Source: Escherichia coli (lineage in GTDB: Bacteria; Pseudomonadota; Gammaproteobacteria; Enterobacterales; Enterobacteriaceae). Taken from it: DNA of 64,000 bases. Of this stretch, positions 50,820-56,016 are shown in pieces. The DNA lies in assembly GCF_002854065.1 (NCBI RefSeq), contig NZ_CP024147.1. The stretch is one strand, 5' to 3'. The notes beneath the pieces are model-generated. The model did not search any database. It worked only from the letters and a program-made list of their open reading frames with translations, and had not been told where the DNA came from. Every line of letters begins with the position of its first letter. The stretch's first letter is position 1. A program made the position numbers and the translations under genes.

Positions 50820-53792
50820 TTACCAGTGCACTCCAATGGTGAGAAACGCGTTGTTGCGCTCTCCGTTACGTTGATTAATCGCCTTAAAGGTATGTTGATA
50901 CTCGACGCCGAGACTGACTTTGTGCGGCCAGGCGTCGTAGTGCGTCTCGCCGGTCCAAATATTCCAGCGGACCCCGACACCGCCAAGCTGCGCGCCCTGA
51001 GTGCCTTTATCACGATAGCCGTTGTCCTGAACGTGAGCGTAAGGCTCAATAGTCTGTCCGTTAGCTACCTTCTGATGCCAGCTGACGCGATAATCTGCCG
51101 TCCACGCCTGAATATCCTGGCGGATATATTGCGCCGCATCGAGGTACAGGTTTTGGGCAAACCAGCCTGAACCGTTCGGGTGCCATTCGTCGCTGTATTT
51201 GCCGCCATTAAAGAATGAGGCGCTGGCGCGCAGCATGGTATCGGATGCGCCATTTTGCCCGTTCAGCGGCAACTGCTGTTCGACGGCGAGGAAAAAGATC
51301 TGATCGCTCAGCGGCTTCCAGCGTAGACCGGTGCCGGACATCGGATTTTTCACCGGCATCATCACCCCGTTTTCTCCGGTATCGGCAAAGACGCGGCTAT
51401 AAACTGAGAGCAGGTCGCCTTCCAGCAGCATATTGCGTCCGATGCGGTACTCGGCTTCCAGTTGCCCGTAGCTACGATAGCTTTTCCCTGGCGCTGCGCC
51501 GCCAACATTATTGTTAGCGGTACTCATTGCCCCGGAACGCAAGCCGATGGAAGAATCGAAACTGAACGTCCAGCGGCGACCGACCTCCTCATGCAGACGG
51601 CGGAAATTGAAGCGTTGCTGATTTTGCTCTGGGGTCAGTGGGGTTATCAGCGCCTGATTATCAATGTCATCAATCACCAGCCGGGCGTAGTACTGCGTCG
51701 CAGGCATGTCATCCAGACGCTGGTTCACATAGGCCAGTTGTCGGATCAGTGCCGGATCGTCCGGTAGCCCTTTATGCGCCTGTTCGAGCATTTCCCGCGA
51801 CTGTGCGATATCACCGCTATCCCACAAGGCGTAACCAAGCGCTGCCTGGGTGTTGCTATTATTCGGTTCCAGTTCCAGCGCGGCGCGCAAATCACTCACC
51901 GCGGCCGGGACATTATGACGTTGGCGATAAATTGTCGCCCGCGCAACGTAAGCGTTGGCAGAAGGCGCAATATTGATTGAGCGCGTGAGATCGTTCAGTG
52001 CGAGTTCCGGCTGACCAGGAATGTAACGTTGCGCATGCAGCCACCAGTAGAGCGCATTGCTTCCCAGTCCACGTTTTTCTGCCTGTTGTAGCCAGCGATC
52101 GCGAGCCGCACCATTTCCTGCCGCCTGGGCGGTATTGGCAGCAGCAAGCAGATCCTCATTGCTCATGTCGTGAAGACTGATTTTCTGCCAGGCCGCCAGT
52201 GCGGTGGCGTAGTCCTCAACCTGATACGCCTGATAGGCTACCGCACGATGTTGCCAGGCGTTCGGTTGTCGTTGTTCGGCCTGAAGCCATGCATACAACG
52301 CCACACCGGGTAGCGTGTCCCGATAACACTTTGCCAGACGGTTCCAGGCGGCAGCATCGTAGGAAGGCGACATATCGCCCAGCAAGCGAACTATTGCCGG
52401 GCAATTATCTGCAATACCCGGCAACTGACTTTGCCACTGACGTTGCTCCGCCAGCGGTAAGGGTTTCGATAAAATCGCCACCTTCGCTGGAGTTGCCAGG
52501 TAAGGATGACTTTCCAGAAGAGACGCCAGTCGCGCCATTAAAGTCTGGCTGACACGCGCATCGCCCTGGAAAGGATAGCGTTGCAGCAATAAATCGGCAG
52601 CTTCGCGTGACTGCTCGCTCTGTATCAGTTGCCAGGTTAGTTGATCCAGGCGGGTAAGATTTGCCGGTTCTTGCTGATACAGCAAGCGTGCCAGACGCAG
52701 AGCTTCAGCCTTGTTACGGGTCGCCACGCTGACAGCATAACGCTCCTCAAGCATTTCATTGGCGGGGAGGGTGGCGAGCAGTTTTTGCGCTGCGTCGTAC
52801 TGACCTTCTTTTAACAGCACCGGTAGCGTCGCGCCAACAACATACTGGCGGTTATCGGCAAACTGCACCGTATAATTCGCCAATGCCTGAACGGGGTTGG
52901 CGCTGTATTTAGATAACAGATAGAGCCAACTTTTCTCTTGTGCGTCCGTGGTAAACAGCGGCTTATTTTCAATGAGATAATGCTGGAGGCGTGCTTTTTC
53001 GCCACGATAAGCCAGCGCGGTCGCGTAAGTAATATATGACTGAGGATCGGTGAAGATCCCCTGTGATTGCAGTGCCAGGATCCGATCGTCCAGCTGCCCG
53101 GCAAGAAGCACGTCAAACCACTGACGGCGTTCTGCCGCGCTTAATGTGTTCTGCTGGCGTGCTTCATTGTATAGCGTATCTGCCTGGGACCATTGTTTCA
53201 GGTAGATTGCCCGTTGCAGCAGATCGGTTCGCAGCGTTTTTCCTTCCGGCGATGCAGCAAACGTCGCATCGTTCAGTTGCGCTCTGGCGACAGGTAACTG
53301 TGCCAGCCGCAGGGCATTCTGCCCGACTTCACTGCGACAACGCAGGGTCGGCGCAGCATCGCACGCTTTTTGCTGGGCAAGCAGTTCTTCAACTGTCGTA
53401 ACGCTTTTCACTTCAACTGGAATAGCCGCCAGACTGCGCTCAAGTCGGGCATCTCCTGGGTGACGTTTCAGTTGATCCTCAAGCAACAGCCGCGCCCGGT
53501 CATCATGACCAAAATGGCGATAGGCTTCCGCAAGGTATAAAGTCAGCGGAATATTATCCGGCACCTGCTGGTGTATATATTCATATTCGCGGATGGCGGT
53601 TGCTTCGTCGTTATTTTTCTGTGCCTTCAGCGCCTTATCGAGACGGGGATAAATAACAAAATGGCGATAATCGCTCAGCCCCAGCTCTTCTGCGCTGGTG
53701 CCGATATTGTCTGCGAGTGCGCTGGTACTCAATAAAGACGTCAGCAGTAAACCAGACCATCCGATGACGCGATTAAGGTTATTCTCCTTCAT
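50820..53792 (-). CDS. nfrA: outer membrane protein NfrA (phage N4 receptor)
   Basis: ~990-aa ORF with signal peptide and TPR-like N-terminal region. Confidence 0.85.
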   Translation of the reverse strand: MKENNLNRVIGWSGLLLTSLLSTSALADNIGTSAEELGLSDYRHFVIYPRLDKALKAQKNNDEATAIREYEYIHQQVPDNIPLTLYLAEAYRHFGHDDRARLLLEDQLKRHPGDARLERSLAAIPVEVKSVTTVEELLAQQKACDAAPTLRCRSEVGQNALRLAQLPVARAQLNDATFAASPEGKTLRTDLLQRAIYLKQWSQADTLYNEARQQNTLSAAERRQWFDVLLAGQLDDRILALQSQGIFTDPQSYITYATALAYRGEKARLQHYLIENKPLFTTDAQEKSWLYLLSKYSANPVQALANYTVQFADNRQYVVGATLPVLLKEGQYDAAQKLLATLPANEMLEERYAVSVATRNKAEALRLARLLYQQEPANLTRLDQLTWQLIQSEQSREAADLLLQRYPFQGDARVSQTLMARLASLLESHPYLATPAKVAILSKPLPLAEQRQWQSQLPGIADNCPAIVRLLGDMSPSYDAAAWNRLAKCYRDTLPGVALYAWLQAEQRQPNAWQHRAVAYQAYQVEDYATALAAWQKISLHDMSNEDLLAAANTAQAAGNGAARDRWLQQAEKRGLGSNALYWWLHAQRYIPGQPELALNDLTRSINIAPSANAYVARATIYRQRHNVPAAVSDLRAALELEPNNSNTQAALGYALWDSGDIAQSREMLEQAHKGLPDDPALIRQLAYVNQRLDDMPATQYYARLVIDDIDNQALITPLTPEQNQQRFNFRRLHEEVGRRWTFSFDSSIGLRSGAMSTANNNVGGAAPGKSYRSYGQLEAEYRIGRNMLLEGDLLSVYSRVFADTGENGVMMPVKNPMSGTGLRWKPLSDQIFFLAVEQQLPLNGQNGASDTMLRASASFFNGGKYSDEWHPNGSGWFAQNLYLDAAQYIRQDIQAWTADYRVSWHQKVANGQTIEPYAHVQDNGYRDKGTQGAQLGGVGVRWNIWTGETHYDAWPHKVSLGVEYQHTFKAINQRNGERNNAFLTIGVHW

Positions 53793-56016: not shown

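Follow-up and report, generated by a model that had tools for sequence, protein, structure and literature searches.

An inherited nfrB pseudogene with two recurrent nonsense mutations in Escherichia coli

We analysed a window of 64,000 nucleotides of Escherichia coli DNA (NCBI RefSeq assembly GCF_002854065.1, contig NZ_CP024147.1; coordinates are positions in this window), in which the nfrB gene, on the minus strand at 53779–56016, is interrupted by two in-frame stop codons, W391* and Q614*. NfrB is an inner-membrane family-2 glycosyltransferase (GT2), activated by cyclic di-GMP (c-di-GMP), which polymerizes the surface glycan known as the N4 glycan receptor (NGR) for export via NfrA. We consider it very probable that the window carries a recently inactivated and inherited nfrB allele, in which W391* arose by deamination at a Dcm site and Q614* by an ordinary C>T transition, and that the loss of NGR is advantageous. 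Natural pseudogenes of this kind in a phage-receptor pathway are nothing unusual, and the finding is of a sort already known: Sellner et al. (2021, mBio, PMC8669472) state that nfrB is disrupted in some E. coli by insertion sequence (IS) elements, deletions or premature stops.

Both the list of open reading frames (ORFs) and translation in a single frame return a colinear nfrB frame of 746 codons and 2238 nt, beginning with a GTG start at 56014–56016, in which three minus-strand ORFs of 390, 210 and 112 aa share the same frame. The only internal stops are a TAG at codon 391 (54844–54846; ...LWPDA*HFLSIF) and a TAA at codon 614 (54175–54177; ...VLRG*IVTGL), exactly as the initial annotation of this DNA had described. 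Ungapped alignment of nfrB with the intact alleles of O157:H7 strain TR01 and of K-12 MG1655 showed no indels, which confirms the earlier view that these are two independent point nonsense changes and not the result of a frameshift or an insertion. The same alleles give the ancestral codons as TGG for Trp391 and CAA for Gln614, the mutated bases being 54845 (amber, TGG>TAG) and 54177 (ochre, CAA>TAA) respectively. TR01 has the nearest intact allele, and the nine bases at which the window differs from it comprise seven synonymous changes, the two stops and no missense change. Apart from its stops the gene is pristine, and it was broken recently.

The family membership of the encoded products was assessed with the NCBIfam NfrB equivalog NF008411 (c-di-GMP-activated glycosyltransferase), which has a curated cut-off of 1170 bits. 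The intact TR01 allele passes this cut-off with 1332.6 bits, and the 390-, 210- and 112-aa products of the window all fall below it, with 803.2, 330.8 and 103.3 bits respectively. These data show that the locus is an nfrB pseudogene and holds no functional member of this family. The 390-aa N-terminal remnant (54844–56016) contains the first membrane helix, the GT2 domain (Pfam Glyco_tranf_2_3 and Glyco_trans_2_3, residues 70–382) and part of the membrane linker; the 210-aa internal ORF (54175–54807, M404–G613) contains the tandem c-di-GMP-binding motifs at residues 489–540; and the 112-aa C-terminal ORF (53779–54117, M634–E745) contains a second MshE-like motif, its end overlapping the start of nfrA by 14 nt in the operon context nfrB-nfrA-ybcH. 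The frame retains all of the published catalytic residues, i.e. D169, D267 and W330, with the QxxRW (Q326-K-S-R-W330) and TED (T265-E266-D267) motifs, and the processive-glycosyltransferase signatures DxD, TED and QxxRW all lie within the GT2 domain. The published c-di-GMP-binding residues (L490, G491, L505, L509, L518, G519 and L537) are also all retained. Because W391* ends translation after the GT2 domain, the catalytic domain loses its connection to the membrane linker and to the c-di-GMP receptor; the C-terminal MshEN domain (Pfam, residues 542–628) is still encoded, yet W391* leaves it unlinked to the glycosyltransferase domain, and it is itself interrupted by Q614*.

To place the allele among its relatives, 5426 complete E. 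coli genomes were searched, nfrB being found in 5092. The best match to nfrB of the window, with 99.9% identity, was that of strain 100416 (human stool, Gambia), which shares W391* and Q614*, adds W11* (TGA) and W551* (TAG), and shows no other difference in the gene; the NCBI annotation pipeline marks this copy as pseudogenic and notes an internal stop. Among the complete genomes Q614* was common only to the window and strain 100416. The Trp551 (54364–54366) and Trp11 (55984–55986) codons, each in a Dcm site, are still TGG in the window; the former is TAG in a sister sublineage comprising strain 100416 and the loci L029, L031 and L035 (L numbers denote loci fetched for nfrB) and the latter reads TGA in two of these, strain 100416 and L031. 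In addition, the 210-aa product, which requires both stops, was found as an exact match on 88 public contigs (118 index blocks), including one National Collection of Type Cultures (NCTC) genome and ordinary draft assemblies, short-read drafts among them, and the assemblies with W391* come from several laboratories and countries. The two stops are therefore genuine and have been inherited.

Each of the two has also recurred on its own in E. coli as a loss-of-function allele. W391* as TAG occurs on at least five nfrB haplotypes (those of the window, the K-12 type, two B2-like types and L036, and others) and, because the flanking synonymous markers differ from one haplotype to another, these occurrences point to recurrent mutation and not to one spreading allele; in CFSAN061772, which has the K-12 haplotype, W391* is the sole base difference from K-12. 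Q614* alone occurs on at least four other haplotypes (L023, L024/L028, L025 and L027), with L027 differing from L024 at the single position 1851, so that a short recombination tract is possible for L027. We considered the spread of one broken allele by recombination as the main explanation and rejected it, the markers flanking W391*, W551* and Q614* differing by background. Exact-sequence look-ups of predicted truncated products found, for stops at Dcm sites, the Q704* product (residues 1–703) on at least 1000 contigs, the W391* product (1–390) on 359, the W551* product (1–550) on about 290, the Q337* product (1–336) on 199 and the W11* product (26–745) on about 58. For stops outside Dcm sites, the Q376* product (1–375) was found on at least 1000 contigs and the W387* product (1–386) on 142. 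Further lesions of nfrB in other lineages include IS1 insertions, frameshifts and early stops. The contig look-up preferentially displays places with differing neighbour genes, and variant, multi-lesion loci are thus over-represented in this sample, from which L012, L014 and L020, which look like noisy long-read assemblies, were left out.

Several of these alleles have features of their own. Q376* (CAG>TAG; L018, L021 and L022) belongs to a very large clone (2353 index blocks, with names including BIDMC 77), in whose loci an ISAs1-family transposase lies upstream of nfrB in place of cusS/cusR. Q704* (CAG>TAG, an inner-C change in a Dcm site) is carried by 123 complete genomes (for example NC_017633.1, 634209–634269), among them those of the prototype enterotoxigenic E. 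coli (ETEC) strain H10407 and of ATCC 43886. Independent lesions also cluster at codons 387–391, with W387* as both TGA and TAG (L010, L011, L013, L016, L017 and L043), W391* as TGA (L039) and a 1-nt deletion of C1162 (L038 and L040–L042), a clustering that is at least partly due to the use of the downstream ORF of 342 aa as a look-up sequence.

Changes of G:C>A:T are known to be concentrated at Dcm sites (PMC13250602). Intact nfrB has just seven CCWGG (Dcm) sites with 14 methylated cytosines, five of which give a stop on deamination (at W11, Q337, W391, W551 and Q704), and truncated products in the public data cover all five. At codon 391 the plus-strand sequence at 54844–54848, once the Dcm site CCAGG, is now CTAGG through a C>T change of the inner cytosine, and W551* and Q704* are likewise inner-C changes. 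W391* thus bears the signature of 5-methylcytosine deamination; the dcm gene itself lies outside the window. Q614* lies in the context GGACAAATT, which contains no CCWGG motif.

The comparison with strain 100416 also bears on what happens to nfrB once it is broken. In an alignment of 52.7 kb the window and this strain are 23 single-nucleotide polymorphisms (SNPs) apart, two of which are the extra stops in the already broken gene; if about 4% of neutral changes are taken to be nonsense, this has a P of about 1e-3, which is a post hoc figure. The alleles form a nested series, from W391* plus Q614* (the window, L006 and L007), through the addition of W551* (L029 and L035), to the further addition of W11* (L031 and strain 100416), and elsewhere in nfrB this series of two, three and four stops shows only one synonymous and one missense change. 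Other stacks are W391* plus W551* (L030, L032 and L033), W391* plus W551* plus Q704* (L034) and K69* plus W387* (L011), and a product of residues 404–703, which must result from Q704* combined with a lesion near codon 391, was found on 46 contigs. The pattern is only suggestive of broken nfrB alleles that keep gaining stops with almost no other change, as most stacks were found by look-ups conditioned on truncation in the sample described above.

Possible causes of such stacking are activity from readthrough or from a restart at M404, harmful fragments, polarity on nfrA, and stepwise 3′-to-5′ truncation of partly functional products. Strictly progressive 3′-to-5′ truncation fits most of the stacked alleles; against it in the lineage of the window, it needs W391* to have occurred twice, since W551* joined an allele already with W391*. 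A more far-reaching proposal is that single nfrB nonsense alleles are not true nulls and that selection fixes further stops, whether through residual activity, through harmful fragments with only the glycosyltransferase or only the MshEN domain, or through polarity on nfrA. We regard this as rather unlikely; if it were true, methylated CCWGG over Trp and Gln codons would be the main natural route by which the glycan serving as a phage receptor is switched off.

Two explanations that would leave nfrB intact or working were weighed against inactivation. The initial annotation had left room for sequencing or assembly error, and W391* does sit in a Dcm motif, where nanopore base-calling is known to err. 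However, the nanopore errors reported there affect the central A/T, which is miscalled as A>G or T>C, and are not inner-C>T changes (PMC6703438), Q614* lies outside every Dcm motif, and the identical double-stop allele occurs in many independent assemblies and in strain 100416. We therefore reject an artefact at methylated CCWGG, and the chance that the stops are sequencing or assembly errors of any sort is vanishingly small. The other explanation is that the allele still functions, either because a suppressor tRNA or leaky termination allows readthrough, as the annotation had also allowed, or because the 390-, 210- and 112-aa pieces reassemble as a split enzyme. In keeping with this, the catalytic and c-di-GMP-binding residues are intact, an in-frame ATG follows each stop (M404 and M634), nfrA and ybcH are intact, and the sister lineage goes on gaining stops, which would be selectable only if the sequence beyond the first stop still mattered. 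Against this, the stops differ in type (TAG and TAA, with TGA added in relatives), the sole tRNA in the window is Arg-TCT and no suppressor tRNA lies within it, M404 is inside a predicted membrane helix with no convincing ribosome-binding site seen upstream, and the IS1 insertions, frameshifts and early stops elsewhere at the locus fit loss of function. With tRNAs scanned over the window, a suppressor background is thus unlikely, and a functional allele of either kind is highly improbable.

A third explanation accepts the inactivation and denies selection: nfrB would be dispensable in the niche and would decay neutrally, with chance stops aided by Dcm hot spots. That W391*, W551* and Q704* all lie at the inner C of Dcm sites is what this would predict. 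The sites themselves provide a built-in control, since each has one methylated cytosine per strand and at three of them deamination of one gives a stop and of the other a synonymous change, with equal opportunity. Exact 61-mer searches of the complete genomes, which count records and not events, gave 4 records of W391* and 1 of A390A at codons 390/391, 12 of W551* and 0 of A550A at codons 550/551, and 123 of Q704* and 0 of Q704Q at codon 704. The excess of stops is present in both strand orientations, and the near absence of synonymous changes at the same sites is contrary to neutral decay. In addition, nfrB is normally under strong purifying selection, because the first six alleles compared differ at about 50 synonymous sites and only two missense sites. 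Among the 23 SNPs that separate the window from strain 100416, just one is a Dcm inner-C change (the window has approximately 314 methylated cytosines), and that one is an nfrB stop, which also led us to reject general Dcm hypermutation in the lineage. It agrees with neutral decay that nfrB has no significant excess of Dcm sites able to yield a stop (five of seven, compared with a background of 51% in the other ORFs of the window, p about 0.24; the same test on density gave p about 0.16). The same figures led us to reject the idea that nfrB is a designed contingency locus rich in such sites and, because of this lack of enrichment, the pattern reflects the fate of the mutations and not a special supply of them. 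Neutral decay alone is, on balance, improbable, and the contrast between stop and synonymous changes, together with the many independent lesions, supports the view that loss of nfrB function is favoured and not merely frequent, as the annotation had hinted.

Several points weigh against selected inactivation as we propose it. The counts are of genomes and not of independent events, and clonal expansion, for example of the Q704* lineage with H10407, inflates the contrast; the minimum number of events in the complete genomes is only about seven or more for stops compared with one for synonymous changes. Q614* is an ordinary C>T transition with no hot-spot explanation. A single-stop intermediate on the haplotype of the window was not found, look-ups of the expected products giving other haplotypes only, and an exact look-up bearing on the order of W391* and Q614*, for the V580 form of the 1–613 product, found it absent from the collection. 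Finally, the absence of NGR glycan and the resistance to N4-type phages are both predictions of phenotype.

The proposed course of events under selected inactivation is as follows. Deamination of 5-methylcytosine at the plus-strand Dcm site (CCAGG>CTAGG) would have given W391*, and an ordinary C>T change Q614*; translation would then stop past the glycosyltransferase domain, no active synthase would be made, no NGR glycan would be displayed, and N4 and other NGR-dependent phages would fail to adsorb. The loss could be advantageous through escape from phage or through the saved cost of the glycan, with methylated CCWGG overlapping TGG or CAG codons presumably supplying stops at a raised rate. 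The phenotype, the selective agent and the order of W391* and Q614* are parts of this explanation that we infer. Resistance to N4 is predicted because infection by this phage requires both the glycosyltransferase active site and the c-di-GMP binding of NfrB (PMC8669469), and an nfrB deletion mutant resists N4 and other NGR-dependent phages (PMC8669472).

Related cases are known from the laboratory and from nature. Laboratory N4-resistant nfr mutants map to nfrA, nfrB and nfrC/wecB (Kiino and Rothman-Denes, as cited in PMC8669469 and PMC8669472), and as described in those citing papers the loss of NfrB abolishes N4 adsorption, which is what we predict for the present allele. The laboratory mutants were selected with phage, whereas the allele of the window is a standing natural variant. 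Natural E. coli defective in nfrB or dgcJ, for example B strains, share the gene, the kind of lesion and the predicted loss of the N4 glycan receptor, but their lesions were ascribed to cost under laboratory conditions, with no allele-level analysis (PMC8669472). The alleles described here, in contrast, are from wild isolates (human stool, animals and food), with several at Dcm hot spots, and are stacked. The classical Dcm amber hot spots in lacI, reportedly found under laboratory selection by Coulondre, Miller, Farabaugh and Gilbert in 1978, match W391* in chemistry and signature, being recurrent C>T changes of the inner 5-methylcytosine of CCWGG that turn CAG or TGG into TAG. Here, unlike in lacI, this mechanism would feed natural polymorphism in a phage-receptor gene, and Q614* falls outside the class.

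If these predictions hold, nfrB could serve as a predictor of host range: this strain and the lineages with W391*, W551*, Q704* (including ETEC H10407) and Q376* should resist N4. The same lineages should also resist the NGR-dependent phages of PMC8669472, i.e. Vequintavirinae, phi92-like phages and Enquatrovirus, which bears on the choice of therapeutic phages. More widely, the supply of stops from Dcm sites, the excess of stops and their stacking would make this a natural case of mutation bias combined with selection on a phage receptor, which may merit population genomics.

The other two genes of the operon are intact in the window. nfrA (50820–53792, minus strand, 990 aa), which encodes the outer-membrane component and target of the N4 tail sheath, has no internal stops and differs from that of strain 100416 by 1 nt; ybcH (49929–50819, minus strand, 296 aa), which comes third in the nfrBA-ybcH operon, is identical to that of strain 100416. 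In some alleles nfrA is broken as well as nfrB, namely in L011 (at codon 649), L038 (at codon 391) and L007 (IS1 in nfrA), and one nfrA lesion is Q649* at a Dcm inner C. nfrA lesions were catalogued only in loci fetched for nfrB, NfrA being too polymorphic for exact matching. It appears that the whole nfrB-nfrA operon decays or is selected against.

Beyond the operon, the ompT gene (46181–48440) is split by an IS2 element (47112–48440; InsC/InsD ORFs at 47158–48431) approximately 25 nt past its start codon, with the rest of the gene at 46181–46897 on the minus strand; it is intact in strain 100416, and this strain has thus lost a second gene for a surface protein. An IS1 element (InsA/InsB ORFs, 43853–44620) lies within a DLP12-like prophage remnant and is not found at this position in strain 100416. 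The gcl-to-allD (glyoxylate/allantoin) region of about 9.8 kb (3260–13037) is kept in the window, whereas strain 100416 has lost it beside an IS1, leaving a truncated gcl. The two also differ by a 4-bp indel (CTTT, 49837–49840) in the ybcH-envY intergenic region.

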